From IMG/VR virus record IMGVR_UViG_3300028833_000002: 21,382 nucleotides of DNA. One strand, written 5' to 3'. Of the stretch, positions 9,348-21,382 are shown piece after piece (the first letter of the stretch is position 1; every line of letters starts with the position of its first letter). The notes under the pieces were generated by a model. That model was not told the origin of the DNA, searched no databases, and saw only the letters and a list, made by a program, of their open reading frames with translations. Source of the stretch: a virus. Taxonomy: Duplodnaviria > Heunggongvirae > Uroviricota > Caudoviricetes. Made by a program: the position numbers and the translations under genes.

Positions 9348-9353
9348 AATCGC

Positions 9354-9382: not shown

Positions 9383-9471
9383 GCGTTATAGGAGTAGAGC
9401 ATGGGTTTCGCGGCAAGATTTTTAGGATTTAATTCCGCGGCGAAATAACAGAGAAAGTAAAATAGCACATA

Positions 9472-9506
9472 CTCTAATACTATGAGCGAAGCGAATAGTA
9501 TTAGAG
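9472..9506. repeat. perfect 12-bp inverted repeat with a GCGAAGC-containing loop
   Basis: CTCTAATACTAT (9472-9483) / ATAGTATTAGAG (9495-9506). Confidence 0.85.
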
Positions 9507-9544
9507 GGGAAGCAGCGTGCGAGCGCGTAGCGCGAGTTAGCTGT

Positions 9545-10104: not shown

Positions 10105-10388
10105 TCTCGCTAAAGCCATCTAACTCGTGCTTACCGTTCCAAACCGTTTTTTAGCGGTTTCGTCCGTTACCCTCCGTGGTGAAGTTTAAGTTTTTCTTAG
10201 TTCTTTGGGAATGGTTTTAGTTTGGTAAATTTTGCTAGCGCAGCCTAGCATAGCGTTAATGAAATTTCGCCGCGATTTTAGGGGAGTAGGTATTGTTTTC
10301 GCGGCGAAAAAGGGGTCGAGAAGAAAAGATTGCGTTCTCCCCTTTTAGGGGGATAGGGGGTCAAAAGGGGCGGAATTTACGCCCCAAG

Positions 10389-10421
10389 AAAACTAATCTT
10401 TTCGTCAGAAAAGTTAGTTTT
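10389..10421. other. inverted repeat
   Basis: AAAACTAA-T-CTTTTC-GTCA-GAAAAG-TTAGTTTT. Confidence 0.55.
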
Positions 10422-10443
10422 CGCCAATTCTTTTATTATATTA

Positions 10444-10610
10444 CAGTTGGTTTAAATTTTTACACCCAGTTGGTTTAAATTTTTACAGCAGATGGTTTAA
10501 ATTTTTACACCCAGTTGGTTTAAATTTTGACATTCGGGCGGGTTGTCAGTTTAAATTTTTACAACCAGTTGGTTTAAATTTTTACACCCAGATGGTTTAA
10601 ATTTTTACAC
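10444..10610 (+). repeat. iteron-like tandem array, 7 x 22-23 bp (CAG(T/A)TGGTTTAAATTTTTACACC)
   Basis: Four copies 10444-10534, a 12-bp interruption, then one partial and two full copies to 10610. Confidence 0.9.
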
Positions 10611-10693
10611 TCTTGCCCGGTATGAAAATTTTTGATTTTCTTTTACATTTTCTACATTATTAATGCCGATGGTCGCGGCAAGGAGATGATAAT

Positions 10694-11425
10694 ATGACCA
10701 AACGAAATATAAAAACCTTTGATGATACTCATAAGCCTGATATTACTAAAACTTAGCAGCTCGTTTATCACTATCTACTTAGTAAATCTGTGTTTGACCC
10801 TGATTTAAAAATTTACAAAGTATTTAAATCTGATATACCTCAAACAAAAATCGCGGCAGATTTAAAAATATCTAGACCTACCGTATCAACAGCTCTCAAA
10901 AAACTCGATGAAAAACACTACATCAGTGAAGTTGACCTAGATGGTTCCTTAACGCCGGGAAAGTGGTATGTAATTCATCCATATATGACGCCATATGTGG
11001 GGTTAGATATAGACCTCATTAAATTTCTTACTGTAATTGCTTCCTCTCTTAAAGAAGACCTTAAACATGTAATTTCTGTTTATTGTTTATTATGTAAGTT
11101 CTATGATGAAGCTCATAAAAATTATATGGTGCCTTATATTACTCCGTCATTGCTTGCAAAAGTTTATGAAAAGAACAGTAGTTATGGAAATATGACTCCT
11201 AAATATTACATTCTTCTCAGTATTTTTATTGGAACAGAATTATTAAATGGTGAATGGGAAGATTGCGTTATAAATAATAGCGGATTAACATGCAGAAAAT
11301 TTAAAATTGAAAAAATTTGTACTGTTTTGCCGCAAAATATTAAAGAAGTTTTAAAAGATGACATAGATGATGCTAAAACTCATCAAATGTTAGAACGAAT
11401 TCTCCAAGAAAATCCAGAAATGTAA
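10694..11425 (+). CDS. Rep-like winged helix-turn-helix protein (243 codons) with an in-frame TAG at codon 21; recoded gene or pseudogene
   Basis: AAGGAG RBS 8 nt before ATG 10694, in frame with the track ORF 10790-11425, whose GTG lacks an RBS. TAG at 10754-10756. HTH segment QTKIAADLKISRPTVSTALKKLDEKHYI. Confidence 0.65.
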
Positions 11426-11435
11426 AAATTTTCCA

Positions 11436-11463
11436 GCTCTAGGACAGCTCCTAGGGCTTTTTT
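11436..11463 (+). terminator. intrinsic terminator
   Basis: GCTCTAGGA-CAGC-TCCTAGGGC then TTTTTT. Confidence 0.8.
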
Positions 11464-11480
11464 ATTTGTGTGCGTCCGAC

Positions 11481-11646
11481 GCAGCTCCTTCGCAGCTCCT
11501 ATAAGACCCCTATAACGCCGCGCCCGGGGAGACCGCTCCCTATCCGCCCGGATGTGCCGCGATTTTATGGGGCTGACGGACGACGTAAATGGGTGGCTTG
11601 GCGGCGCGAATAAATGTGGGCGGGATGCAGCTCCTTCGCAGCTCCT
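11481..11646 (+). repeat. direct repeat GCAGCTCCTTCGCAGCTCCT x2 bracketing a GC-rich structured segment
   Basis: Identical 20-mers at 11481-11500 and 11627-11646, each itself a tandem GCAGCTCCT. Confidence 0.8.
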
Positions 11647-11758
11647 TTAAGGGGCGTAAATACGTGGTGTGCCGTGGGGAGTGGGTGGAAATGGGGGAAT
11701 TGAGGGAAAGATGGCGAGATTGGAAAATTTCGTTAGAAATGGAAGAATGTGGTAAATT

Positions 11759-11797
11759 GCCCGGGCAAATTGGCAATAAGTGGTAAAAGGCCCGGGC
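11759..11797. promoter_or_regulatory. double GCCCGGGC site at the end of the cassette array (no promoter follows)
   Basis: GCCCGGGC at 11759 and 11790 in periodic TGG(T/C)AA(A/T) / TTT(A)CCA boxes. Confidence 0.7.
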
Positions 11798-11831
11798 AGA
11801 ATGCCAAATTTTACCAATCAAATGGCAAAAT

Positions 11832-11854
11832 AAAACCACTCCCGAAGGAGTGGC
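11832..11854 (-). terminator. terminator, cassette 1
   Basis: GCCACTCC-TTCG-GGAGTGGT-TTT on the minus strand. Confidence 0.85.
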
Positions 11855-11860
11855 AATATT

Positions 11861-12124
11861 TTACATGGTAAGGTCGATGATGTCTTCGCCCTCCAAATCG
11901 TCCATGTCTGTGACTTCTTCAATGTCGATATAACAATCTTCCAAAAAGTCATCAAATTCTTCATCTGTGTAACCATCTGTGTATGCAACATCTATATTGC
12001 TTGCGGCATAGTCATAAATTCCGTCTAACATATAATCGTTAACTTCCTCTTCACCATTTGCCTTAAAATAAAGCGTATCGTCACAACCGCAGTAACCACA
12101 AGTATACGTGCCTTTAAAATACAT
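11861..12124 (-). CDS. very acidic small protein with CxxC (87 aa), possible DNA mimic
   Basis: GAGGAGGAAG RBS inside the upstream gene; about 27 D/E versus 2 K; CGYCG motif. Confidence 0.8.
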   Translation of the reverse strand: MYFKGTYTCGYCGCDDTLYFKANGEEEVNDYMLDGIYDYAASNIDVAYTDGYTDEEFDDFLEDCYIDIEEVTDMDDLEGEDIIDLTM

Positions 12125-12693
12125 TAATCTTCCTCCTCTTCATCCAAGTCTTCATCTTCATTGTCATTATCTGCCATGTCAAAACAATCCTCTTCTTCAA
12201 CTTCAATGTTAAAACTGGACTCCCAAAAACTGAGAACAAAACTACCACTTTCCGGCGCAAGTGCTTCCAGTGCCTTGTTAATTTCTTTTGCAGTATGGTA
12301 GTCAATTTCTGATGATAAAGCATTGTCATATGCTTCATGGTCATAATCATCGTAAATCATATCATACCACGGTAACTCAATTTCATCATCGTTATCTTTA
12401 CGTGCGCAAATACCTACATTCTGTATAAACCATTCAATTTTTGTATCACGGTCAACCTCTTCGGCAAGTGCCTGTGCTAAATTCCACAATGAAATATATG
12501 AAGTGCCATTGTAGATGTAGCCGGTATAATGTTCAACGTCGAAAAATCTGCCGTTATAGCGGTCACAATTCTGCATAACCTTTTCAACTTCGTTAACAAT
12601 TCTGTCTGAAAAGTCGTTCTTTAAGGCGCTGGTTAAATCTGTAAGATTTGAGTAAAATGATGGGCAGTGTCCTTCGTAAATTACTTTGTACAT
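12124..12693 (-). CDS. hypothetical protein with a long acidic C-terminal tail (189 aa)
   Basis: First gene of the cassette, leader plus GGAAGGA RBS; tail EEEDCFDMADNDNEDEDLDEEEED. Confidence 0.85.
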   Translation of the reverse strand: MYKVIYEGHCPSFYSNLTDLTSALKNDFSDRIVNEVEKVMQNCDRYNGRFFDVEHYTGYIYNGTSYISLWNLAQALAEEVDRDTKIEWFIQNVGICARKDNDDEIELPWYDMIYDDYDHEAYDNALSSEIDYHTAKEINKALEALAPESGSFVLSFWESSFNIEVEEEDCFDMADNDNEDEDLDEEEED

Positions 12694-12701
12694 AGTTATT
12701 A

Positions 12702-12733
12702 TCCTTCCGGTTTTAGGGACTTATTACCTGTCC
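12702..12733 (-). ncRNA. leader stem-loop/pseudoknot + SD, copy A
   Basis: GGAC-AGGUAAUAA-GUCC-CU-AAAACC-GGAAGGA. Confidence 0.75.
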
Positions 12734-12757
12734 TTTGTTGTTTTATCTTATGTATAT

Positions 12758-12786
12758 ATTATAACATAGAATAGGGCAGTTGTCAA
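12758..12786 (-). promoter_or_regulatory. consensus sigma-A promoter
   Basis: TTGACA-17-TATAAT, TGn extension. Confidence 0.95.
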
Positions 12787-12828
12787 GTGTTTTTCTAAAA
12801 ATTTTTCGCTGCCAAAATCTACCAAATC

Positions 12829-12836
12829 GCCCGGGC
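12829..12836. promoter_or_regulatory. GCCCGGGC core of the periodic site
   Basis: Starts 43 bp from the -35 hexamer. Confidence 0.7.
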
Positions 12837-12865
12837 GAAAAGGCAGAATTTACCATTTAAGGGGT

Positions 12866-12890
12866 AAAATAAATCGCCCCGAAGGGCGAA
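12866..12890 (-). terminator. terminator, cassette 2
   Basis: TCGCCC-TTCG-GGGCGA then TTTATTTT. Confidence 0.85.
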
Positions 12891-12893
12891 GTA

Positions 12894-13304
12894 TTAGTCG
12901 TTGTATTTTTCCGTAATATGGCTTGCATACTTATCATAGTAAATGTTGTCATATATTTCCATATCATACTGTAATAACCGTATTTTATCTTGTAACTCTT
13001 TTATCTCATTATGGCACAAATCCGCCGCATCTTCATAATGTAACACTTCTTCATACCTTTTGACTATTATTCTGTCTTCTGCTACTTCATCGGTATTAAA
13101 AATATCAAAAACGCCAGTTAAAACTTCTTTAAAGACATCAAATTCAGTTTCAGTACATTTTATAATTTCAAAGGGGTAACCGTCATCAATGGCATTGATA
13201 AGATTTTCATAGTTTTTGTCCTGTATAAAATCCTCACAGTTGTCAGAAAGTGTTAATTCATAACAATCTCTTTCATGGTACATTCTGTATACAATTACTA
13301 TCAT
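12894..13304 (-). CDS. acidic hypothetical protein (136 aa)
   Basis: GGGAGG RBS favours ATG at 13304 over the track start at 13319. Confidence 0.8.
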   Translation of the reverse strand: MIVIVYRMYHERDCYELTLSDNCEDFIQDKNYENLINAIDDGYPFEIIKCTETEFDVFKEVLTGVFDIFNTDEVAEDRIIVKRYEEVLHYEDAADLCHNEIKELQDKIRLLQYDMEIYDNIYYDKYASHITEKYND

Positions 13305-13306
13305 AG

Positions 13307-13726
13307 TTAATCCTCCCAAATTAAATCAATGTGAAAACTGTTAATATTTACTGTCATGTCCACCATTTCCCAGTGTCTATTGTACGCTTCTTGTAATATA
13401 TTGGTTAAAAAATTATCAACAAATGTATTTGCCGCATCATACATTTCTCTTGAAAGTATACGATTTCTGTACAAAAGAAGTATATCACTTAAATGAAAGT
13501 CTCCGATTGTTTCATCTGTGTCATAAATAGTTTCTGCATGAAGGGTAAAACAATAATCTGTCAAATTATACCAAGTTGTTATAATGTCTTCGGCAGAACT
13601 TTGGTCTAACATATAATTTACCATTAATCTTAATGAACTTGTTTCAAAGTCATTACACTTAAAGCAACACTTTTTCATATTGGTTTTGTTCCCTTTTTTC
13701 ATATTGGCTTTGTCCTTTTTTTTCAT
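13307..13726 (-). CDS. hypothetical protein (139 aa) with a triplicated start region
   Basis: First gene of the cassette; in-frame ATGs at 13726, 13702, 13678 from a 24-bp tandem repeat. Confidence 0.8.
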   Translation of the reverse strand: MKKKDKANMKKGNKTNMKKCCFKCNDFETSSLRLMVNYMLDQSSAEDIITTWYNLTDYCFTLHAETIYDTDETIGDFHLSDILLLYRNRILSREMYDAANTFVDNFLTNILQEAYNRHWEMVDMTVNINSFHIDLIWED

Positions 13727-13734
13727 ATTGGTTA

Positions 13735-13764
13735 TCCTTTCCGGTTTTAGAGTCTTTCCTGACT
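13735..13764 (-). ncRNA. leader stem-loop/pseudoknot + SD, copy B
   Basis: AGUC-AGGAAA-GACU-CU-AAAACC-GGAAAGGA. Confidence 0.7.
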
Positions 13765-13778
13765 TATCTTATGTATAT

Positions 13779-13807
13779 ATTATAACATATTCCGCCGCGA
13801 TTGTCAA
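13779..13807 (-). promoter_or_regulatory. consensus sigma-A promoter
   Basis: TTGACA-17-TATAAT; spacer contains ATCGCGGCGGAA. Confidence 0.95.
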
Positions 13808-13849
13808 GTAGTTTTGAAGAAAAATTTTCGCGGCAATAAATGGTAAAAT

Positions 13850-13857
13850 GCCCGGGC
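13850..13857. promoter_or_regulatory. GCCCGGGC core of the periodic site
   Basis: 43 bp from -35. Confidence 0.7.
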
Positions 13858-13891
13858 GAAAAGGAAAAATGTGGTAATGGCATAATAAATG

Positions 13892-13915
13892 AAAACCGCC
13901 CAATAAATGGGCGGC
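13892..13915 (-). terminator. terminator, cassette 3
   Basis: CCGCCCA-TTTAT-TGGGCGG-TTTT. Confidence 0.85.
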
Positions 13916-13919
13916 GTGT

Positions 13920-14384
13920 TTACTTCAACCATTTTGCTATATATTCGCTTGTATAACCACTACGGATAGGGGGATTAGATAAATCAGTTAAAAAACCGCT
14001 ACCCTTATTTATTTTAATATGTATACCATATAAACTTTTTGCTTTTTCTTTAGGTTTAAGTTCAACATAGTTAGTTCTATTTTTATCTTGATTTAGTTTA
14101 TCTATCTCTGTATTCTTTACATAGAAATAAAAAGGTAAATCCGTTTTGTCCTCTCTTTTAGTATGGAATACACATTTTGTATAATGCGTATTAAACCAAA
14201 GGAGTTGACATTTTCGATAGAATTTGACGATAGGACGAATGAAAATGAACACAATAAGCGTCCAAACACCGCATAAAGCGTATTGTATTTTTTCATTATC
14301 ATATAAGTTCGCAAGAGAAACGATAAAAATAATAAGCTGATAAGCAATAATTGTGATGATTATAGTTAAAATAATAGTTGTCAT
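13920..14384 (-). CDS. membrane protein, two N-terminal TM helices (154 aa)
   Basis: AAGGA RBS; hydrophobic segments near aa 3-26 and 35-52, basic C-terminal domain. Confidence 0.8.
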   Translation of the reverse strand: MTTIILTIIITIIAYQLIIFIVSLANLYDNEKIQYALCGVWTLIVFIFIRPIVKFYRKCQLLWFNTHYTKCVFHTKREDKTDLPFYFYVKNTEIDKLNQDKNRTNYVELKPKEKAKSLYGIHIKINKGSGFLTDLSNPPIRSGYTSEYIAKWLK

Positions 14385-14386
14385 AA

Positions 14387-14593
14387 TTAATCCTTCTTTG
14401 ATGTTGTCTTAAAGAAACTGCCAATGATTGAAAGTACAATCGCCCATAGTGCCGCCTGTTTCCAAGTCCATGTCGCAATTACACCTAACTTACAAAGTGC
14501 CCACAGTCCAAATCCTACAAGAAGAATTGAAAAACCATAACAAATTGCCATAATAGCAACAACAGCGATAAATGTTAATAAAACTTTTTTCAT
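14387..14593 (-). CDS. small membrane protein (68 aa)
   Basis: Almost entirely hydrophobic; first gene of the cassette. Confidence 0.85.
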   Translation of the reverse strand: MKKVLLTFIAVVAIMAICYGFSILLVGFGLWALCKLGVIATWTWKQAALWAIVLSIIGSFFKTTSKKD

Positions 14594-14602
14594 AATAGAA
14601 AA

Positions 14603-14636
14603 TCCTTTCCGGTTTTAACGACTTATAACCTGTCGT
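14603..14636 (-). ncRNA. leader stem-loop/pseudoknot + SD, copy C
   Basis: ACGAC-AGGUUAUAA-GUCGU-U-AAAACC-GGAAAGGA. Confidence 0.75.
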
Positions 14637-14659
14637 GTTTTGTTTTATCTTATGTATAT

Positions 14660-14688
14660 ATTATAGCACAGTTTAAGGCGCTTGTCAA
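14660..14688 (-). promoter_or_regulatory. consensus sigma-A promoter
   Basis: TTGACA-17-TATAAT. Confidence 0.95.
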
Positions 14689-14729
14689 GTGTTTTTAAAA
14701 ATTTTTTCGCCGCCAAAAACTGCCAAAAC

Positions 14730-14737
14730 GCCCGGGC
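14730..14737. promoter_or_regulatory. GCCCGGGC core of the periodic site
   Basis: 42 bp from -35. Confidence 0.7.
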
Positions 14738-14772
14738 ATTCTGCCAAAATTTACCAATTATGGCATATAAAG

Positions 14773-14796
14773 AAACCGCCCTCTTTCGAGAGCGGC
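14773..14796 (-). terminator. terminator, cassette 4
   Basis: GCCGCTCTC-GAAA-GAGGGCGGT-TT; identical 24-mer at 19151 and 20309. Confidence 0.85.
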
Positions 14797-14801
14797 GAAA
14801 T

Positions 14802-15119
14802 TTACCAGTCTGACCTATTGTCCCGTATATATTGACTTATATAATATAAAAGATAAGGCATATTACAATCTTTACTATTAACTGTAAAATTGTCACTTCC
14901 TGCCCAGTCCGGACCTTTTACATCCACTATGTCATTGTAAATATCCTCCTCTTTATCAAAATCAAACATACCAATATTTCTCAGAATGGTATTTTCTTCC
15001 TCTAACTTCTCTATTCGCTTTTCTAACTGGATTATTTTGGAGAACAGTGCGGCAAGTACCGCATCTGTTTCCATTTTTTTACCATCCTTGTCATAAAATC
15101 CACTTTCCCACAATTTCAT
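14802..15119 (-). CDS. hypothetical protein with a short coiled coil (105 aa)
   Basis: GAGGT RBS; segment KIIQLEKRIEKLEEENTIL. Confidence 0.8.
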   Translation of the reverse strand: MKLWESGFYDKDGKKMETDAVLAALFSKIIQLEKRIEKLEEENTILRNIGMFDFDKEEDIYNDIVDVKGPDWAGSDNFTVNSKDCNMPYLLYYISQYIRDNRSDW

Positions 15120-15129
15120 TTTTCTTACC

Positions 15130-15573
15130 TCACATTCTTAACACGGCATTTAAGATGTCAAAGATTTCCTTTTCGGAGTAAGCACCTTTTCCCCATTCTT
15201 CCCTAATTTCCTTATTATCATCAAAAAGGATACCTTTACCAAGGCTGTGCTTTGGCGTGCCGTATGGTACAATACAAATCTCATCCCATTCCACAGATGG
15301 AAGATGTTTCCTAAGCCACTGTAATTTGGCTTCCTTTGTGCGCTTGTCAAATTCCGGTGTACTTTCCTTTGAGCACCATGAAACGATTTTCAGAGTAAAG
15401 TCTAATTCCTTCTGTAATTTGTTGAGAAGTTTGGCAAGCCTTGACAAGTTAAGTCGTGCCTTAGCATCCTTGTATGGTCTTACGGAATAATTTCTCAAAT
15501 CTTCCAACCAACCTTCAACTTCATAGAAGTTATTTAAAGTTCCGTCCATGTCAAATACTATTTCTTTTTCCAT
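15130..15573 (-). CDS. HAD-superfamily phosphatase, 5'(3')-deoxyribonucleotidase-like (147 aa)
   Basis: Motif I IVFDMDGT, motif II IVSW, K..WL..HLP and motif IV ILFDDN. Confidence 0.8.
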   Translation of the reverse strand: MEKEIVFDMDGTLNNFYEVEGWLEDLRNYSVRPYKDAKARLNLSRLAKLLNKLQKELDFTLKIVSWCSKESTPEFDKRTKEAKLQWLRKHLPSVEWDEICIVPYGTPKHSLGKGILFDDNKEIREEWGKGAYSEKEIFDILNAVLRM

Positions 15574-15587
15574 AATTTAGTCCTTTC

Positions 15588-15650
15588 TTAATCAATAAAC
15601 ATTAAAATAACTGCAAAGAGAGTTAAACCTATAAGCATCAATGCGGTCAT
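15588..15650 (-). CDS. 20-aa hydrophobic peptide MTALMLIGLTLFAVILMFID (below the ORF-track cutoff)
   Basis: GAGGTG RBS directly after the cassette promoter; TAA followed by the RBS of the HAD gene. Confidence 0.65.
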   Translation of the reverse strand: MTALMLIGLTLFAVILMFID

Positions 15651-15675
15651 TTAAACACCTCTTTTCTATGTTTCT

Positions 15676-15704
15676 ATTATAACATATTTATAGGCGGTTG
15701 TCAA
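15676..15704 (-). promoter_or_regulatory. consensus sigma-A promoter (cassette without the structured leader)
   Basis: TTGACA-17-TATAAT. Confidence 0.95.
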
Positions 15705-15744
15705 TAGTTTTTAAAAATTTTTTATTTCCAGTTCCTACCAAAAT

Positions 15745-15752
15745 GCCCGGGC
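15745..15752. promoter_or_regulatory. GCCCGGGC core of the periodic site
   Basis: 41 bp from -35. Confidence 0.7.
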
Positions 15753-15781
15753 ATTCTGTCAAAATTTTCCAGTTATACCAT

Positions 15782-15820
15782 AAAAATGGGGCGGCAACCC
15801 TTTTCCAAGAGTTACCGCCC
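15782..15820 (-). terminator. terminator, cassette 5
   Basis: GGGCGGTAACTCTT-GGAA-AAGGGTTGCCGCCC then CATTTTT. Confidence 0.8.
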
Positions 15821-15826
15821 TTACCA

Positions 15827-16552
15827 TTAAAATGGAAGCCATCTTTCGTATCCAGTTTCTTCCACAAATTTTTGAAATGTTTTCCAAGCACAAATACAAT
15901 TCCATACTTGTTTTTTACCAGATTTTAACGCCCATAGCAAAATTTCATACTCTATCATAACATCACTTAAACCTGTATGTTCTTCTTCAAAATCAGCATA
16001 ACTTTCACCCTTTAAATATCTATAGACTATCTCGGCACTATAACGATAATTACCTTTTTCTGTCAGATAACCATGTCTATCACAGAACTGTAAATATTTC
16101 GGGTCAAGTAGTCTACTATGAACAACCGCACTCATAATGTCACGTATTTCCAATTCTAACATTTCATACCTTGCGCCTAAAAGACGGGATAAAGCGGAAT
16201 TGTCAAAAGCTACATTATAAGCATACAGTTTTTTGATTTTGTATTTCTGAATATCACTTGTAAATAATATCCAAAAACTTTCAATACTTATGCACTTGTA
16301 CTTCCTGTTTTTAGCACTATTCTCATAGTCTGTTAAAATGTCTTTAGTGTTTTTTAAGTGCATTTCCTTACATAAGCCAGTTTCTAAAGAATTTATCAGA
16401 TTTTGCCACACCGCATAAGGTAGCGCAATTGACCTCTTTTGGTAAATATTGCCGGCATTATCTGCTACAATATAACCAATATTGTAGGGTAGGCAAGTGG
16501 AATTTCCTTCCACGTCTAACACTAAAAACTTTTCCTTTGGACGACCTCTCAT
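15827..16552 (-). CDS. DEDDh (DnaQ-like) 3'-5' exonuclease (241 aa)
   Basis: ExoI LVLDVEG, ExoII AYNVAFD, ExoIII EEHTGLSDV. Confidence 0.85.
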   Translation of the reverse strand: MRGRPKEKFLVLDVEGNSTCLPYNIGYIVADNAGNIYQKRSIALPYAVWQNLINSLETGLCKEMHLKNTKDILTDYENSAKNRKYKCISIESFWILFTSDIQKYKIKKLYAYNVAFDNSALSRLLGARYEMLELEIRDIMSAVVHSRLLDPKYLQFCDRHGYLTEKGNYRYSAEIVYRYLKGESYADFEEEHTGLSDVMIEYEILLWALKSGKKQVWNCICAWKTFQKFVEETGYERWLPF

Positions 16553-16563
16553 TTTTTGGTAAT

Positions 16564-16596
16564 TCCTTTCCGGTTTTAACGACTTATGACCTGTCG
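16564..16596 (-). ncRNA. leader stem-loop/pseudoknot + SD, copy D
   Basis: CGAC-AGGUCAUAA-GUCG-UU-AAAACC-GGAAAGGA. Confidence 0.75.
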
Positions 16597-16611
16597 ATTT
16601 ATTATGTTATT

Positions 16612-16640
16612 ATTATATCACATTTGCGGTTGTTTGTCAA
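16612..16640 (-). promoter_or_regulatory. consensus sigma-A promoter
   Basis: TTGACA-17-TATAAT. Confidence 0.95.
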
Positions 16641-16700
16641 GTGTTTTTAAAAAATTTTTTCGCGGCGAAATATGGTAGCGCTGGAAAATGCTGGAAAGTC

Positions 16701-16708
16701 GCCCGGGC
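16701..16708. promoter_or_regulatory. GCCCGGGC core of the periodic site
   Basis: 61 bp from -35. Confidence 0.7.
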
Positions 16709-16740
16709 ATTTTGCCAAAATTTTCCAGTTTTGGATAAAA

Positions 16741-16773
16741 AATAAAAGAGGGCTGAACCGAAGTTCAGTCCTC
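16741..16773 (-). terminator. terminator, cassette 6
   Basis: GAGGACTGAAC-TTCG-GTTCAGCCCTC-TTTTATT. Confidence 0.85.
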
Positions 16774-16779
16774 GCTGGA

Positions 16780-17196
16780 TTATTCTGCCTTATTTTCCGC
16801 CTTTTCCTGTTCTCTTTTTGCCTTGTCTTTTTCTGCCTTTTCTGCTGTCTTTTTCTTCTTTTCCTCTTTTTCCTTTAATGTGTTTTTATACTTCTTTTCT
16901 TCCTCCCATCTATTATATTTTTCAAATTTTCTTTTTTCCGTTCTGTAGTCCTTATACTTGCATAAAGTTGGAGATATTACCGCACAACGTTCAACCCTCT
17001 TACCAGTGTCTTCCAGTTCTACCTCTCCAATGGCAACGGCAACCTCACTGGCACCTACAATGGAAACATTTTCCTCTCCGTATGCTTCAATCATAGCCTT
17101 GACGATAACATCAAAAAGGGTTGCTCTAAAGATGTTATCCATTTTCTGACTTTTTACTTCTTTTTCCTTTAAACTTACAAATTCTGCCTGTTCCAT
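16780..17196 (-). CDS. hypothetical protein with a Lys/Glu-rich C-terminal helix (138 aa)
   Basis: Sole gene of the cassette; GGAAGGA RBS. Confidence 0.85.
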   Translation of the reverse strand: MEQAEFVSLKEKEVKSQKMDNIFRATLFDVIVKAMIEAYGEENVSIVGASEVAVAIGEVELEDTGKRVERCAVISPTLCKYKDYRTEKRKFEKYNRWEEEKKYKNTLKEKEEKKKKTAEKAEKDKAKREQEKAENKAE

Positions 17197-17203
17197 AATC
17201 TTT

Positions 17204-17236
17204 TCCTTCCGGTTTTAACGTCTTATAACCTGACAT
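17204..17236 (-). ncRNA. leader stem-loop/pseudoknot + SD, copy E
   Basis: AUGUC-AGGUUAUAA-GACGU-U-AAAACC-GGAAGGA. Confidence 0.75.
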
Positions 17237-17287
17237 AAATTGATAGTATGGTTTTTAGGTGTTTTCTTCCCTTCACCTTATGTTAAT

Positions 17288-17316
17288 ATTATAGCACATC
17301 TTTTCGGTTTTGTCAA
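17288..17316 (-). promoter_or_regulatory. consensus sigma-A promoter
   Basis: TTGACA-17-TATAAT. Confidence 0.95.
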
Positions 17317-17377
17317 TAGTTTTAGAAAAATTTTTTAAAAAGTTTTTTATGGTAGAATTGGAAAAATCTGGAAAAAC

Positions 17378-17385
17378 GCCCGGGC
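17378..17385. promoter_or_regulatory. GCCCGGGC core of the periodic site
   Basis: 62 bp from -35. Confidence 0.7.
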
Positions 17386-17419
17386 AAAAAGGTAAAAATT
17401 TCCAGTAACATGGTATAAG

Positions 17420-17440
17420 AAAACCGCCCCGAAGGGCGGC
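17420..17440 (-). terminator. terminator, cassette 7
   Basis: GCCGCCC-TTCG-GGGCGGT-TTT. Confidence 0.85.
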
Positions 17441-17445
17441 ATAGA

Positions 17446-17652
17446 TTAATCATCGTATAAATTAAGTGCTTCAATACTTGCGACATCACAATTGTCATCA
17501 AGATACGTATTTAAGTCAATTTCTGTATTTCCTGTATACGGTTCACCTGTTAAATCTGCGATTGTTGACAAAACGTCTTCAAGTGCGGAGGAATATTCGG
17601 TATACGCACATATTGCACAACCCATACTATGCACTACATATATTTCTTTCAT
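17446..17652 (-). CDS. small acidic protein (68 aa)
   Basis: ATGA coupling with the upstream gene; about 14 D/E versus 1 K. Confidence 0.75.
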   Translation of the reverse strand: MKEIYVVHSMGCAICAYTEYSSALEDVLSTIADLTGEPYTGNTEIDLNTYLDDNCDVASIEALNLYDD

Positions 17653-18044
17653 TTGTTATACCCCTTTTCTTTAAGAAACTCAATACATTTTTCCGTCCAA
17701 TTAACCATAAGTTCTGCTTGTTCTAAGTAATCTGTTATACGCACTACGTGACCGTCTTCACGAGCAATAAACCATGAATTTTTCCATGGAACCTCCAAAC
17801 ATCTTGCTAAAATGCCATAATTTACATCAGTAAAAGCCTCATGAAAGTATCGAACCATGTAATCTTTTTCCTTTTCTGAAAGTCCCATTACTTGGAAGGG
17901 ATAACCACATTCGGCTATTAAACTTATTACTTCGCTTACTTCATCATCTCTTTCCCCTTCAATTATTTCAAATTCCGGAACTTTGTATTCAATTATCTTA
18001 AAATTTAAACTTATTGCATCATTTTTACAAACCTTAATATACAT
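17649..18044 (-). CDS. hypothetical protein (131 aa)
   Basis: GGAGGT RBS, TGA stop. Confidence 0.8.
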   Translation of the reverse strand: MYIKVCKNDAISLNFKIIEYKVPEFEIIEGERDDEVSEVISLIAECGYPFQVMGLSEKEKDYMVRYFHEAFTDVNYGILARCLEVPWKNSWFIAREDGHVVRITDYLEQAELMVNWTEKCIEFLKEKGYNK

Positions 18045-18045
18045 A

Positions 18046-18258
18046 TTATACCTCCTTTACAAACAAAGCTATGTTTAATGTCAAGAAAATTCCATTAATG
18101 ATAGCTCCTACCAATGCCTTATGTCTTATACTATCAAGAAGACCAGCACTTGACGACACTATGAAACAAGGTGCTGCCCAATTACTTCCAGCATAGCATA
18201 ATCCTGCCGCGATAGCACAGCAGAATATCATAAATACTTCAATATCTCTTATCTTCAT
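18046..18258 (-). CDS. small membrane protein (70 aa)
   Basis: Two to three hydrophobic segments; first gene of the cassette. Confidence 0.8.
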   Translation of the reverse strand: MKIRDIEVFMIFCCAIAAGLCYAGSNWAAPCFIVSSSAGLLDSIRHKALVGAIINGIFLTLNIALFVKEV

Positions 18259-18267
18259 GGTAAAAAG

Positions 18268-18296
18268 TCCTTCCGGTTTTAGAGTCTTTCCTGACT
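18268..18296 (-). ncRNA. leader stem-loop/pseudoknot + SD, copy F
   Basis: AGUC-AGGAAA-GACU-CU-AAAACC-GGAAGGA; 36 nt identical to copy B. Confidence 0.7.
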
Positions 18297-18310
18297 TATC
18301 TTATGTTTAT

Positions 18311-18339
18311 ATTATATCATATTTGCGATGAGTTGTCAA
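18311..18339 (-). promoter_or_regulatory. consensus sigma-A promoter
   Basis: TTGACA-17-TATAAT. Confidence 0.95.
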
Positions 18340-18379
18340 GTGTTTTTAAAAAATTTTTATTGGGAATTTGTGGTAAAAT

Positions 18380-18387
18380 GCCCGGGC
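18380..18387. promoter_or_regulatory. GCCCGGGC core of the periodic site
   Basis: 41 bp from -35. Confidence 0.7.
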
Positions 18388-18416
18388 AGTTTGGAAGATT
18401 TTACCAGTAATAGGAC

Positions 18417-18443
18417 AAAAAAGAAACCACCCCGAAGGGTGGC
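18417..18443 (-). terminator. terminator, cassette 8
   Basis: GCCACCC-TTCG-GGGTGGT-TTCTTTT. Confidence 0.85.
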
Positions 18444-18448
18444 ATAAG

Positions 18449-18985
18449 TTACCAATTGATATATAATGGATAACAAGGACGCAACATAGAGTTATAAATT
18501 AATATACCTTTTTTAATTTCAGCATTAAAACCATGATTTTGTAAATAAAGTTCAACATCTTTTACACAATATTCAATTGGAAGGTCATAAGTAGTTTCAC
18601 GATGACCACATTTAGCATCTAAAACAATCACACGTTCTATGTATTTAAGTTCCTTTGATATTCCTTTACGTCGTCTAAGTTCCTCTTTATCTTCCTTTAA
18701 TTGCTTTTTGTATTCTCCTTTGTTAATTACCCTTTGTGCTTTTTCAAGCGTAGACAGTTTTCTCGGTTTTGTTGAGAAATCATAACTGATACCAATATCT
18801 ATCCACACTACCATTATTACAAAAAAGCGAGTTATAAATATAAAAAATAAGGGAGTGAATAAATCTGAGGTGCCTAAAAGGCGAGATAACATTAAAATGC
18901 TAAAAATAGTAAAAGCAATATTCATTATGTGTATTATCATACTCCATAAATTAAAAATGTTTAAATTTCTTTCCTTTTCTGACAT
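18449..18985 (-). CDS. membrane protein, two N-terminal TM helices plus a basic coiled coil (178 aa)
   Basis: Hydrophobic aa about 10-35 and 43-66; sole gene of the cassette. Confidence 0.85.
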   Translation of the reverse strand: MSEKERNLNIFNLWSMIIHIMNIAFTIFSILMLSRLLGTSDLFTPLFFIFITRFFVIMVVWIDIGISYDFSTKPRKLSTLEKAQRVINKGEYKKQLKEDKEELRRRKGISKELKYIERVIVLDAKCGHRETTYDLPIEYCVKDVELYLQNHGFNAEIKKGILIYNSMLRPCYPLYINW

Positions 18986-18993
18986 ATAGTTTA

Positions 18994-19025
18994 TCCTTCC
19001 GGTTTTATAGAGTTGTAACCTCTCT
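18994..19025 (-). ncRNA. leader stem-loop/pseudoknot + SD, copy G
   Basis: AGAG-AGGUUACAA-CUCU-AU-AAAACC-GGAAGGA. Confidence 0.75.
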
Positions 19026-19037
19026 TTCTATATTCTT

Positions 19038-19066
19038 ATTATATCATATTTCGCCGCGATTGTCAA
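19038..19066 (-). promoter_or_regulatory. consensus sigma-A promoter
   Basis: TTGACA-17-TATAAT; spacer contains ATCGCGGCGAAA. Confidence 0.95.
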
Positions 19067-19107
19067 CACCTTTTTCAAAAAAATTTTTTACCAATTCCTA
19101 CCAAATT

Positions 19108-19115
19108 GCCCGGGC
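19108..19115. promoter_or_regulatory. GCCCGGGC core of the periodic site
   Basis: 42 bp from -35. Confidence 0.7.
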
Positions 19116-19148
19116 GTTTCGCCAAAATTTACCATTTCTACCATAAAC

Positions 19149-19174
19149 AAAAACCGCCCTCTTTCGAGAGCGGC
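19149..19174 (-). terminator. terminator, cassette 9
   Basis: GCCGCTCTC-GAAA-GAGGGCGGT-TTTT. Confidence 0.85.
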
Positions 19175-19180
19175 AAATTA

Positions 19181-19543
19181 TTACTTTACGATGTATTTAT
19201 TCGGAGTACCCTTCTGAATGTCAACTATATCGGCATTCTGTAAGTTTCTCATAATCGCTGTAAACTTTGACGAGTTCATTTTAAAGTCATATTCCTTTTC
19301 AAGTTCACCGATGACTGTTGCCTGTTTCTTCCATATTTCGTCCATGGTATAAATCAGACCTTTGTTTAAACCCGCTACCATTTTCTTACCAATTTCTGTG
19401 TTCTGTTCTCTCTTTTCTGCGGAATTTTTTGCCGACCTTGCGTTTTTACTGTCAACACTGGCAAGAAGTGCCTTTGCTTTTTCTGTAATTTCGTCGCTAA
19501 GATTTGCGGCAATAACCGCATTATAAAATTCTCTCTGTGTCAT
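19181..19543 (-). CDS. small protein with a probable C-terminal winged helix (120 aa), distant paralog of 20358 and 20946
   Basis: AAGGAGGG RBS; shared MT.R.FY..V.AN.....E...A N-terminus and NSSK...I.R....V...P..Y C-terminus. Confidence 0.8.
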   Translation of the reverse strand: MTQREFYNAVIAANLSDEITEKAKALLASVDSKNARSAKNSAEKREQNTEIGKKMVAGLNKGLIYTMDEIWKKQATVIGELEKEYDFKMNSSKFTAIMRNLQNADIVDIQKGTPNKYIVK

Positions 19544-19556
19544 GGTAAAACCCTCC

Positions 19557-20096
19557 TTATTCCTCTACTGTTACCGTATCTTCATAGAACTGACAAATTG
19601 TATCATCCGATAATCTAAGTATGATATACTTTTTACCGTCTTTTCTTCTATTATTAGTAGTGCCGATAAATTCATATCTGTTACAACCCCAACGAAAAAT
19701 GTCATGTGGTTTAAGTTCTGATAACTTTTTCTTTACTTCAAATTTAGGGCGCTCAACGTGGTTATACTTTGCCCAAAGTACACCTAAACCAGTAAAGACT
19801 TTAAACTTATCCTTTTTATTACAATAAGTTTCCACAAACTTACCGCTACGAGTATTAAGAAGACCTATTTTACGTGCCTTCGTGTTAACAGTAACCACAT
19901 AATTACCAAAGGTAAAGCTGTCGGCGCCTCCATAGGCATAGTCCTGGCGTTCAAAAGTTCTGTAAACTTCTGTCATTACATCATCAAAATCCATTGGAAA
20001 GCCTACCTGACCACTATTTACCGTTGCATTTGCCATAGCAATAATGAATGAATGCATCTGTGAGAGAGTCCATGTTGAGAATGTAAGATTTTCCAT
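19557..20096 (-). CDS. hypothetical phage protein (179 aa)
   Basis: First gene of the cassette; contains C...D.F....G motif (YCNKKDKFKVFTG), which recurs in phage hypotheticals from recall. Confidence 0.85.
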   Translation of the reverse strand: MENLTFSTWTLSQMHSFIIAMANATVNSGQVGFPMDFDDVMTEVYRTFERQDYAYGGADSFTFGNYVVTVNTKARKIGLLNTRSGKFVETYCNKKDKFKVFTGLGVLWAKYNHVERPKFEVKKKLSELKPHDIFRWGCNRYEFIGTTNNRRKDGKKYIILRLSDDTICQFYEDTVTVEE

Positions 20097-20104
20097 AGTT
20101 AAAT

Positions 20105-20136
20105 TCCTTTCCGGTTTTATAGACTTGAACCTGTCT
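20105..20136 (-). ncRNA. leader stem-loop/pseudoknot + SD, copy H
   Basis: AGAC-AGGUUCAA-GUCU-AU-AAAACC-GGAAAGGA. Confidence 0.75.
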
Positions 20137-20163
20137 GTTTGTTTTGTTTTATCTTATGTATAT

Positions 20164-20192
20164 ATTATAGCATAGAATAGGATACTTGTCAA
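20164..20192 (-). promoter_or_regulatory. consensus sigma-A promoter
   Basis: TTGACA-17-TATAAT. Confidence 0.95.
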
Positions 20193-20264
20193 TAGTTTTT
20201 TGAAAATTTTTTAAATTTATTTTTCGCGGCGAAATATGGTAAGATTGGTAAGAATTGGCAAAAT

Positions 20265-20272
20265 GCCCGGGC
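20265..20272. promoter_or_regulatory. GCCCGGGC core of the periodic site
   Basis: 73 bp from -35; TGGCAAAAT-GCCCGGGC-GTTTCGCCA imperfect palindrome. Confidence 0.7.
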
Positions 20273-20307
20273 GTTTCGCCAAAATTTTCCAATGGTGGAA
20301 ATAAAAG

Positions 20308-20332
20308 AAAACCGCCCTCTTTCGAGAGCGGC
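20308..20332 (-). terminator. terminator, cassette 10
   Basis: GCCGCTCTC-GAAA-GAGGGCGGT-TTT. Confidence 0.85.
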
Positions 20333-20357
20333 TTCCAGTTTCTGCCGTTTTTGGTTA

Positions 20358-20675
20358 TCACTTCTTGCTGTACTGCTTAGGTGACGAATCATCTGATACA
20401 ACCTTATCCTTTAAGATTTCACGGAGAACGTAACCAATCTTTGAGGAGTTGTACTTGCCTGAGAACATAGCAACGATGTCAGAGTTAAGGTACTTCTTTC
20501 CAGCCTCCATCTTGGCGAGGATTTCCTCGCCGAGAGCAACGTTAGCTTCACGCTTGCTGTCCTTTGCCTTATCTTCCTCCGCAAACTTAGCAAGGTACTT
20601 TCCAGCAATTTCCTTAGCTTCTGCTGAAATTGTTGCATTTGCGGCTACCTCTGAATAAAAAGCTCTAAGTGTCAT
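20358..20675 (-). CDS. small protein with a probable C-terminal winged helix (105 aa), tandem copy 1
   Basis: 98 of 105 aa identical to 20946-21263. Confidence 0.85.
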   Translation of the reverse strand: MTLRAFYSEVAANATISAEAKEIAGKYLAKFAEEDKAKDSKREANVALGEEILAKMEAGKKYLNSDIVAMFSGKYNSSKIGYVLREILKDKVVSDDSSPKQYSKK

Positions 20676-20684
20676 AATTAAAAT

Positions 20685-20716
20685 TCCTTTCCGTTTTATA
20701 GTCTTATAACGTGACT
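20685..20716 (-). ncRNA. leader stem-loop/pseudoknot + SD, copy I (compensatory variant)
   Basis: AGUC-ACGUUAUAA-GACU-AU-AAAAC-GGAAAGGA; loop CGUU matches tail AACG. Confidence 0.75.
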
Positions 20717-20763
20717 TAAATTGTTTTTAAGGGGTTTTCTTTATCCCCTCACCTTATGTATAT

Positions 20764-20792
20764 ATTATAACATAGATTTATTAGAATGTCAA
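20764..20792 (-). promoter_or_regulatory. consensus sigma-A promoter
   Basis: TTGACA-17-TATAAT. Confidence 0.95.
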
Positions 20793-20853
20793 TAGTTTTT
20801 CTAAAAAATTTAAAAAAGTTTTTTATGGAAGAATTGGAAAAATCTGGCAAAGT

Positions 20854-20861
20854 GCCCGGGC
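20854..20861. promoter_or_regulatory. GCCCGGGC core of the periodic site
   Basis: 62 bp from -35. Confidence 0.7.
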
Positions 20862-20896
20862 GAAATGGAAAAATTTTCCAGTAATGGGTTAAAATG

Positions 20897-20921
20897 AAAG
20901 CCGCCCTCTTTCGAGAGCGAC
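20897..20921 (-). terminator. terminator, cassette 11
   Basis: GTCGCTCTC-GAAA-GAGGGCGGC-TTT. Confidence 0.8.
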
Positions 20922-20945
20922 TTCCAAACTGTGGCAGTTTTGGTA

Positions 20946-21263
20946 TCACTTTAATGAATACTGCTTTGGACTGGAATCGTCTGCCACTACCTTATCCTTT
21001 AAGATTTCTCTAAGGACATAACCAATCTTGCTTGAATTGTACTTGCCTCCAAACATTGCCACAATGTCGGAGTTAAGATACTTCTTACCCTTTTCCATCT
21101 TGGCAATAATTTCCTCGCCAAGTGCCACATTTGCGGCTCTCTTGGAATCCTTTTCCTTATCTTCCTCCGCAAACTTAGCAAGGTACTTTCCAGCAATTTC
21201 CTTAGCTTCTGCTGAAATTGTTGCATTTGCGGCTACCTCTGAATAAAAAGCTCTAAGTGTCAT
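20946..21263 (-). CDS. small protein with a probable C-terminal winged helix (105 aa), tandem copy 2
   Basis: Paralog of 20358-20675, offset 588 bp. Confidence 0.85.
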   Translation of the reverse strand: MTLRAFYSEVAANATISAEAKEIAGKYLAKFAEEDKEKDSKRAANVALGEEIIAKMEKGKKYLNSDIVAMFGGKYNSSKIGYVLREILKDKVVADDSSPKQYSLK

Positions 21264-21273
21264 AATAATAACT

Positions 21274-21305
21274 TCCTTCCGGTTTTAACGTCTTGAACCT
21301 GACAT
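21274..21305 (-). ncRNA. leader stem-loop/pseudoknot + SD, copy J
   Basis: AUGUC-AGGUUCAA-GACGU-U-AAAACC-GGAAGGA. Confidence 0.75.
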
Positions 21306-21367
21306 TGATAATTTAAATTCTTACTCGGTGAATTTTCGTTTCCTGTTTCCCTTCACCTTATGTATAT

Positions 21368-21382
21368 ATTATAGCATAGATT
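21368..21382 (-). promoter_or_regulatory. -10 element of a sigma-A promoter; -35 lies outside the window
   Basis: TGC-TATAAT-ATATACATAAG, as in the other cassettes. Confidence 0.8.

Follow-up and report, generated by a model that had tools for sequence, protein, structure and literature searches.

The closest described counterparts of the locus considered here are the promoter-early stem-loop elements (PeSLs), composite promoter/terminator motifs associated with hyperplastic regions, modular shuffling and mini-circles in T4-type phages (Arbiol et al. 2010, PMC2839356; Comeau et al. 2014, PMC4122927). The locus is part of a virus sequence of 21,382 nt (IMG/VR record IMGVR_UViG_3300028833_000002; in the following the window, or W), whose minus strand carries, at positions 11731-21382, an array of small transcription units separated by copies of one intergenic module that is built around the 8-bp palindrome GCCCGGGC. 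Judged by its sequence, the array is an instance of the PeSL model in a non-T4 phage and not an integron. We consider it likely that it forms the promoter-distal end of a putative early gene array (host-takeover type) of at least 22 kb, and that the phage is an uncultivated rumen phage of approximately 180 kb from the TAG-recoded 'code 15' group, transcribed by a host polymerase of the sigma-A type.

The similarities to PeSLs are manifold. The array combines a consensus host-type early promoter and its AT-rich upstream tract with a stem-loop terminator to a composite motif; the motif lies before genes without known relatives in a hyperplastic region; and where close relatives differ by an indel or a replacement, the motif marks its boundaries, as in the PeSL case, where recombination between motif copies has been proposed. 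The differences concern lineage and architecture. The nearest named phage with a protein of the array (241 aa) is Phass-1, which NCBI places in the 'code 15 clade', a lineage unrelated to the T4 superfamily, and the genes of the array end exclusively in TAA or TGA. The promoters are sigma-A promoters with extended -10 element. The module extends over ~250 bp, as compared to ~100 bp for a PeSL, and its terminator is located well upstream of the promoter, whereas in most PeSLs the stem overlaps the promoter. The array adds a promoter-phased 64-bp site, consisting of the palindrome and flanking pentamers, and a conserved leader hairpin. Phass-1 itself (OQ749652.1), a gut phage, is likewise TAG-recoded; it has promoters densely arrayed at one end of its genome and encodes a homologue of the 241-aa protein. 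It differs in that the protein identity is ~30%, the 14-kb array region has a GC content of 50%, and its single GCCCGGGC is situated inside a gene; Phass-1 therefore lacks the palindrome module.

Integrons share with the array the arrangement of small mobile units in variable order and content, and the original prediction had described the array as integron-like. This description does not hold. IntI, a folded site resembling attC and a common Pc promoter are all missing from the array; each cassette carries its own promoter and terminator, promoterless attC cassettes are absent, and the 8-bp palindrome is not an attC site. Tyrosine and serine recombinases (PF00589, PF00239) were not found in a related contig (G2, see below) and four complete or near-complete palindrome-bearing genomes, and PF00589 had no hit near the array or in the five records G002, G003, G004, G005 and G007. 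Pfam and PHROGs scans of 30 open reading frames (ORFs) of the window, about ten small plus-strand ORFs being left unscanned, revealed no integrase.

Two further systems are of relevance. The host-takeover module of SPO1 and the pre-early/early regions of T5 consist of small early genes with strong host-type promoters and terminators. The array is alike as a dense cluster of small, putatively early genes with many sigma-A promoters and terminators, but none of its genes was shown to be homologous to the SPO1 module: only a DEDDh-like protein, the above-mentioned 241-aa product, has relatives in Enterococcus phages (EF1, H1 and VRE9, 29-31% identity), in addition to the relative in Phass-1. A stereotyped palindrome site is not known from SPO1 or T5. 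Dozens of copies of one short protein-binding site are likewise found across the intergenic gaps of a gene array in Cluster A mycobacteriophages (L5 and others). The L5-type stoperators are, however, asymmetric 13-mers that are oriented with transcription and bound by the prophage repressor, whereas the site of the array is symmetric and lies upstream of promoters, and no integrase was found in the relatives searched.

The intergenic module

The promoter sequence TTGACA-N14-TGnTATAAT has ten exact matches in the window, all on the minus strand (12758-20792), while 0.36 are expected by chance, as anticipated in the original prediction of ten perfect promoters; an eleventh promoter is truncated by the window end (21368-21382). 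The palindrome GCCCGGGC occurs 12 times, exclusively within 11759-20861 (0.04 expected by chance). Ten of these copies are located 40-72 bp upstream of a -35 box, the remaining two (11759 and 11790) are promoter-less. GC-rich terminator stems with GAAA or UUCG loops and a T run are found at the end of every unit (11 in total, the one at 20900-20921 identified by eye and regex), and a terminator hairpin with T run precedes each palindrome by 25-50 bp. Each unit, with its own promoter and terminator, comprises one to three small genes. With promoters, palindromes and terminators all far above chance, the array of 11 minus-strand cassettes is confirmed.

The components follow a fixed order: terminator, periodic GCCCGGGC site, A/T tract (UP-like, present at all ten perfect promoters), promoter, ATATACATAAG-type start, leader hairpin and Shine-Dalgarno (SD) sequence. 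The predicted order was found in nine of ten complete modules; the exception is the unit with promoter 15676-15704, which has a short leader with a mini-ORF of 20 codons. The leader hairpin, which abuts the SD sequence, has a 4-bp stem that is paired in 98% of 44 distinct leaders from W and its relatives, and at each of the four pairs both sides have changed; shuffled and slid controls all score far lower. A pseudoknot between the hairpin loop and an AACC motif is paired in 91%, with a single covarying pair that stems from one cassette family; such a pseudoknot is plausible but not established. In several modules, a further palindrome, TTCGCCGCGAA, is found between the right arm of the site and the A/T tract (minus strand, 16655-16665 and 20213-20223; shortened to TTGCCGCGAA at 13824-13834).

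The comparison includes, besides W, the lineages M1 (L201), M2 (L202), G1/G2 (IMG/VR; G1 = L114/L115), E1 (L206) and E2 (L207), all of which are metagenome assemblies. Protein-anchored scans of IMG/VR yielded only two relatives, the contigs G1 (47.9 kb) and G2 (77.5 kb), which carry the same array and a helicase of 89-90% identity; a metagenome scan, yielding two more, and protein look-ups added M1, M2, E1, E2 and several short contigs. In G1 and G2, 25 and 23 perfect promoters, respectively, occupy one strand over a span of ~22 kb. The array of W is likewise not complete in the window but runs on past its edge. CheckV completeness is 27% for G1 and 43% for G2, corresponding to a genome of ~180 kb, and E1 is the beginning of a contig of 185.8 kb that starts within the array. 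The bulk of the window sequence is present in the sequencing runs X1-X5, which are sheep gut metagenomes. Among GenBank phages, no megablast match to the array and nothing close was found, and Rfam and tRNA scans of the window had no matches. The AT-rich start motif alone was rejected as a search query due to lack of specificity (at least 111 unrelated loci).

A promoter-phased site of dyad symmetry

The most interesting new element of the module is the rigid, AbrB-like dyad site, to which we ascribe a putative function in transcription. In 69 unique modules from five genomes, pentamers of the form TGGNA or TNCCA start at exactly -28, -19, -9, +12, +22 and +31 relative to the palindrome, with spacers of 4, 5, 4 bp on either side and zero indels. 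The pentamer centres are located ±10.5, ±20.5 and ±29.5 bp from the dyad, which gives a rigid site of 64 bp. The orientation of the pentamers is biased (TGGNA left, TNCCA right) yet free; T at position 1, A at position 5 and the fixed centre are retained. The gap between palindrome and -35 box falls into four groups (82 unique modules): 39-44 bp (43 modules), 48-52 bp (8), 59-62 bp (25) and 71-73 bp (6). The resultant length at a period of 10 bp is 0.82, which is not a formal probability, since the modules are related by descent. This spacing holds palindrome and promoter in helical phase and points to a role in transcription.

The arrangement of the pentamers has a known counterpart. AbrB, the transition-state regulator of Bacillus, recognizes a bipartite TGGNA consensus with high affinity, with AT-rich spacers of 4-5 bp, in direct, reverse, inverted or everted orientation, and multiple motifs span 27-80 bp (PMC3738160); its binding sites in Bacillus subtilis were described by Chumsakul et al. 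(2011, 2013; PMC3025583, PMC3738160). The site of the array shows the same pentamers, AT-rich spacers of the same length, freedom of orientation and several motifs over a comparable distance. At the level of motif and spacing, its grammar is that of the published B. subtilis consensus. The differences are that the six pentamers of the array take invariant positions, and that they surround a GC palindrome that is absent from the AbrB consensus. We therefore propose that the dyad site is an operator, whose occupation by a protein would switch all early promoters together, with a host regulator of AbrB type as candidate binder. As a second and speculative candidate for binding of the palindrome, the array itself encodes a winged-helix protein in multiple copies.

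The distribution of the palindrome extends beyond the lineages compared here. A search for GCCCGGGC 40-70 bp before a perfect promoter returned 80 IMG/VR loci, many of them on contigs of 120-190 kb with terminal repeats. Perfect promoters are clustered in five of these genomes, with 13-31 per genome; in G003, which has direct terminal repeats, the promoter arrays are found at the genome ends formed by these repeats. In total, 398 copies of GCCCGGGC are found in 74 other loci. Seven loci were inspected by eye: the palindrome lies between terminator and promoter, flanked by lineage-specific palindromes of the GTTAGT-N4-ACTAAC, CGAACATATGTTCG and TTGTGCAA types. Variants of the palindrome occur in G1: 13 of its modules contain GGCCGGCC or GACCGGCC and two contain the hybrid GGCCGGGC, the pentamer geometry being unchanged. 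The variant modules of G1 (13.9-26.6 kb of the contig) are interleaved with standard ones, and the hybrid is situated at 25908 and, at the end of the array, at 4106. In G2, M1, M2 and W the palindrome is almost solely GCCCGGGC, with one hybrid GGCCGGGC each at the array end of G2 and M1.

Several of these observations weigh against the proposed operator. The AbrB/MazE domain (PF04014) was not found in G001-G003 and G005-G007 and has a weak sub-threshold match in G004; as none of these seven related phage records has an AbrB-fold gene above threshold, the binder would be a host protein, provided that the AbrB reading is correct. The other phage lineages retain GCCCGGGC between different flanking palindromes and show no TGGNA phasing, hence palindrome and pentamers may have different binders. 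Finally, a strictly specific binder would not tolerate the mixture of GCCCGGGC with GGCCGGCC, GACCGGCC and the hybrid that is found in G1.

The operator reading also has a variant. The 64-bp site might act at once as a master switch that gates ~25 early promoters by means of a host AbrB-type protein and a phage winged-helix dimer, and as a connector, with the palindrome as common crossover point between lineages. The pentamers may then be read by a host growth-state regulator and the GC palindrome by the winged-helix dimer, and the palindrome, common to hundreds of divergent rumen and gut phages, may allow fully wired early genes to cross lineages. We consider this dual function a tentative proposal that is rather unlikely to be correct. 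Similarly doubtful is the view that the periodic site is merely intrinsically bent DNA with a GC clamp that boosts or insulates strong promoters and has no dedicated binder. GG/CC steps alternating with A/T tracts every 10 bp are a classic signature of anisotropic bending and are present in the site. Upstream curved DNA reportedly stimulates early promoters of SPO1 (work ascribed to McAllister and Achberger, late 1980s), and the free orientation of the pentamers fits as well. An exact 8-bp palindrome in hundreds of copies across lineages, however, exceeds the needs of a clamp, the retained T1, A5 and centre of the pentamers behave as a protein half-site, and the grammar equals that of a known protein consensus.

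Cassette order and content in related phages

In the lineages compared, the distal 5 kb is arranged in at least five ways (W, M1, M2, G1/G2 and E1; six related contigs). With cassettes separated by commas and genes of one cassette joined by hyphens, the order in W is f4, f6-f11, f5-u154, f7-f39, f8-f9. M1 has f4, f17-f18-u65, f6-f11, f5-f2, f7-f39, f8-f9, and M2 has f4, f6, f5, f7, u152-u87, f8-f9. The order shared by G1 and G2 is f4, f17, f5-f18-f24, f6-f11, f7-f25, f8-f9. In E1, f4 and f6 are followed by a two-gene unit, described by called gene lengths only (193 and 87 aa), and by f8-f9. The original prediction of plug-and-play cassettes had named a fixed gene order and content among relatives as its refutation; as neither is fixed, this refutation fails.

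The closest pair, G1 and G2, shows the extent of the rearrangements. One flank (13.5 kb) shows 97.2% identity and the other (19.8 kb) 99.5%. The intervening 15 kb are mosaic, with one cassette relocated, two swapped and four present in G1 only, and the shared cassettes have identities from 68% to 97%. Replacement is not restricted to whole cassettes. Second and third genes within cassettes are also replaced, and one junction lies between genes.

A tandem duplicate at the right end of the window had been taken as the expected product of such recombination. Positions 20371-20670 and 20959-21258 are 588 bp apart and 84% identical at the DNA level. M2 and E2 have the tandem pair as well; G1 has two copies with another cassette in between. 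A tree of nine proteins separates a group of upstream copies from a group of downstream copies with weak support. The two copies of W are 93% identical to each other and 86-91% identical to their orthologues. The duplication is thus an old event, not a fresh one, and has been partly homogenised in W. As read from these identities, it fits an exchange between module repeats, and the partial homogenisation implies that exchange between repeats is ongoing.

Junctions between cassettes

When modules are compared as halves of 60 nt, the left one is found to stay with the gene upstream of it and the right one with the gene downstream. The cleanest example is found at position 13437 of G1. Up to and through the palindrome, the sequence is a perfect match to one G2 module; starting 4 nt ahead of the palindrome, it matches a second G2 module. 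The F31-F32 cassette therefore extends exactly from palindrome to palindrome, and its indel between the two genomes lies with both ends in aaacGCCCGGGC. One G1-only insertion is flanked by two palindromes, and three more G1 junctions are located at most 5 nt from the palindrome. A one-sided scan of all pairs revealed six junctions 13-20 nt after the palindrome start, the spread of endpoints being due in part to 10-bp indels in the right arm.

We propose that cassettes are shuffled when the repeated modules recombine in mixed infections, by ordinary homologous or short-homology exchange, with selection acting as a filter on the products. Such an exchange would be PeSL-like and would require no dedicated recombinase. 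As far as the alignments show, the spacer is a preferred place of exchange, concentrated at the palindrome, but without a single obligatory crossover point. Spread junctions with a concentration at the palindrome are what is predicted for homology-driven recombination combined with selection for intact terminator and promoter halves. Junctions probably pile up at the palindrome because both halves meet there and because it is the best-conserved stretch between them. The predicted plug-and-play socket is retained with respect to reordering and to junctions inside the module. It is not retained as a single obligatory site; second and third genes are replaced as well, and the idea has already been published for PeSLs.

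Some observations speak against this mechanism, too. Further junctions lie at -30, at -13, further into the right arm, in the +1 region and in the leader/SD region (those near the +1 sequence and the SD were seen in visual alignments), and are hence not palindrome-exclusive. Only about 20 independent junction events are scorable, and a strict two-sided script recovered one event. RecA (PF00154) was not found in five related records, in a search that did not cover single-strand annealing proteins of the RecT/Erf/Rad52 type.

The spread of junctions from -30 to the leader may also be explained if the modules are purely regulatory. In that case illegitimate or homologous events would occur anywhere, and breakpoints in the spacer would survive by selection alone. 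Replacements of second and third genes, which have one of their ends between genes and not in a module, are in line with this explanation, as is the arrangement of W, which is identical within spans bridged by contigs of the independent sample X3. We nevertheless regard selection alone as an unlikely explanation, because in G1/G2 the array is far more mosaic than its flanks, the indels are exact palindrome-to-palindrome units and the tandem paralogues are partly homogenised (93% versus 86-91%). In addition, the same process has been shown experimentally for PeSLs (PMC2839356).

At the other extreme, the palindrome might be a true site-specific socket, at which a dedicated phage enzyme, either a recombinase or a nuclease of restriction-like type, cuts or exchanges GCCCGGGC, thereby moving cassettes between distant phages in a functionally integron-like manner. 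The palindrome is the sole element common to many lineages with differing flanking operators, the cleanest junctions lie inside it, the hybrid GGCCGGGC is found where both palindrome types meet, and arrays of the GGCCGGCC type exist in other contigs of the same two rumen samples (3300028832 and 3300028914). We consider such an enzyme improbable. No tyrosine or serine recombinase was found in the five genomes searched for both, many junctions lie elsewhere in the module, and in this lineage the phasing with the promoter points to transcription. Moreover, no donor of the GGCCGGCC cassettes of G1 was found: GGCCGGCC arrays were detected (two from the source samples of G1/G2), none of which reaches 80% identity. 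Excision joints are not readable from contigs; the joints in Logan contigs have sides of 20-35 nt and are explained by cross-matching repeats. Finally, assembly chimeras, in which strains are joined at repeated modules, are a very improbable source of the cassette differences, even though all genomes are metagenome assemblies and Logan unitigs break at a repeated TATAATATATACATAAG stretch, given that the partners at the cleanest junction share only 12 identical bases (below any assembler k-mer), that G1 and G2 were each recovered in two collections, that the E-type order recurs in several independent runs, and that the order of W is bridged by contigs in two samples.

Transcription units and expression

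All units are encoded on the minus strand and are numbered from the last transcribed unit upwards. Unit 11 (20900-21382) consists of the cut promoter (21368-21382), a leader, gene 20946-21263 (105 aa, winged-helix family f1) and the terminator at 20900-20921. Unit 10 (20307-20889), its tandem copy, has the dyad site at 20826-20889 (palindrome 20854-20861), the promoter at 20764-20792 (gap of 61 bp), gene 20358-20675 (105 aa, f1 paralogue) and the terminator at 20307-20336. Unit 9 (19153-20300) has its dyad site at 20237-20300 (palindrome 20265-20272), its promoter at 20164-20192 (gap 72), genes 19557-20096 (179 aa) and 19181-19543 (120 aa, f1 winged-helix), and its terminator at 19153-19174. 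Unit 8 (18426-19143) encodes a single protein of 178 aa (18449-18985) between the dyad site at 19080-19143 (palindrome 19108-19115) with promoter 19038-19066 (gap 41) and the terminator at 18426-18443. Unit 7 (17423-18415; dyad site 18352-18415, palindrome 18380-18387, promoter 18311-18339, gap 40, terminator 17423-17440) comprises the three genes 18046-18258, 17649-18044 and 17446-17652, the third of which has a homologue in M2 and no matching called ORF in G1/G2. Unit 6 (16753-17413) consists of the dyad site at 17350-17413 (palindrome 17378-17385), promoter 17288-17316 (gap 61), gene 16780-17196 (138 aa) and terminator 16753-16768.

Unit 5 (15789-16736; dyad site 16673-16736, palindrome 16701-16708, promoter 16612-16640, gap 60, terminator 15789-15820) harbors gene 15827-16552 for the 241-aa protein with DEDDh-type invariant residues. 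Unit 4 (14775-15780) has the dyad site at 15717-15780 (palindrome 15745-15752) and the promoter at 15676-15704 (gap 40), followed by the mini-ORF (15588-15650), genes 15130-15573 (NT5C-like nucleotidase) and 14802-15119, and the terminator at 14775-14796. In unit 3 (13895-14765), genes 14387-14593 and 13920-14384 are preceded by the dyad site at 14702-14765 (palindrome 14730-14737) and promoter 14660-14688 (gap 41) and followed by terminator 13895-13915. Unit 2 (12874-13885) comprises genes 13307-13726 and 12894-13319, with the dyad site at 13822-13885 (palindrome 13850-13857), promoter 13779-13807 (gap 42) and terminator 12874-12889. Unit 1 (11835-12864), the last to be transcribed, consists of the dyad site at 12801-12864 (palindrome 12829-12836), promoter 12758-12786 (gap 42), genes 12124-12693 and 11861-12124, and terminator 11835-11854. 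The array is closed by the two promoter-less palindromes at 11759-11766 and 11790-11797 (31 bp apart, within 11731-11825), and the same pair closes the array in M1 and M2.

Two sheep rumen metatranscriptome runs (X4 and X5) hold 71% and 45%, respectively, of the sampled words of the array. Their RNA contigs are 100% identical to it and cassette-sized, and none bridges a module; in X1, DNA unitigs bridge the modules at 15.7, 16.6 and 17.3 kb. Five of eight X4 contigs end 11-27 nt short of the predicted start. The depth of RNA contigs is 10-450 in most of the array, as compared to 0-9 in the adjacent region 9300-11700; a few bins of the array are near zero depth in X4 or X5. The cassette-sized RNA contigs are supportive of a transcription unit by unit, with the reservation that they are assembled contigs, not reads, and cannot prove starts, ends or strand. 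The strength and early timing of the promoters and the activity of the module are predicted from sequence.

Gene products and neighboring elements

No Pfam match above the curated cut-off was found for 17 of the 18 proteins of the array, the exception being the NT5C-like nucleotidase; the product of 14802-15119 has two weak sub-threshold coiled-coil hits. The genes were expected to be unrelated, which has to be qualified: the three f1 genes (19181-19543, 20358-20675 and 20946-21263) are paralogues of one family. Their product has a long N-terminal helix and a C-terminal winged helix (AlphaFold2 pLDDT 89), with PadR, MarR, TubR and Z-alpha as top Foldseek hits (E 0.05-0.2). One distant homologue is annotated as a GbsR/MarR-type regulator. 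The f1 cassettes have the highest RNA-contig depths (267-450).

In an alignment of 20 homologues, the 241-aa protein has the invariant residues D13, E15, N113, F116, D117, H192 and D197. This is the pattern of a DEDDh 3'-5' exonuclease, a putative assignment that rests on those residues only; the protein has no Pfam match, and a profile search against PDB sequences gave no hit. It is conserved in 35 other palindrome-bearing phage loci, and altogether three families of the array (DEDDh-like, NT5C-like nucleotidase and f1) recur in 19-35 other loci. The mini-ORF in the leader of the nucleotidase cassette encodes a hydrophobic peptide (MTALMLIGLTLFAVILMFID). It is kept in G1 and G2 with other sequence and the same character, and could be a leader peptide or a micro-membrane protein.

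The genes upstream of the array within the window are of replication type, namely a DnaD-like protein and a Pif1/Dda-like helicase. PHROGs searches with ten upstream genes identified only the DnaD-like replication protein and two families of unknown function. Towards the array, the plus strand carries approximately six ORF-free units of ~100-110 bp (9540-10100), each with a G-run block (GGGGTAGGGGTAGGG-like, quadruplex-prone) followed by an AT-only TAATATAATTATATTATATAGTGCAAGTTAACTT box; they give rise to a GC skew of +0.34 to +0.46. About seven iterons of 23 bp (CAGTTGGTTTAAATTTTTACACC; 10444-10610, plus strand) are located directly upstream of a winged-helix gene (10694-11425, plus strand; Pfam HTH_24), which includes one in-frame TAG if the start is at 10694. 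Positions 10444-11425 have the appearance of an iteron-plus-binder layout. In X3, the iteron/winged-helix region differs by ~3% and the array is nearly identical. Just beyond the array end, two GC-rich repeats of 37 nt with GCAGCTCCTTCGCAGCTCC are found 146 bp apart (11465-11660). Similar GGAGCTG-rich elements occur between palindrome and promoter in three units of G2, in which the palindrome is more than 120 bp away from the -35 box.

Implications

Unknown functions in host takeover and counter-defence are to be found, above all, among the early genes of large phages. The exchange of such genes has been documented mainly for T4-like phages, and the array described here shows modular shuffling of the same kind in an unrelated, uncultivated group of TAG-recoded rumen phages, at a locus whose anatomy is unusually clean. 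The module, which combines terminator, insulator-like site, promoter and leader, may serve as a template for expression parts in Firmicutes, provided that it has the predicted activity. New with respect to the known systems is a testable and precisely built control element, in which six AbrB-type pentamers surround an invariant palindrome, in phase with the promoter. If a growth-phase regulator of the host binds this site, a lytic phage would tie its whole early programme to the physiology of its host.

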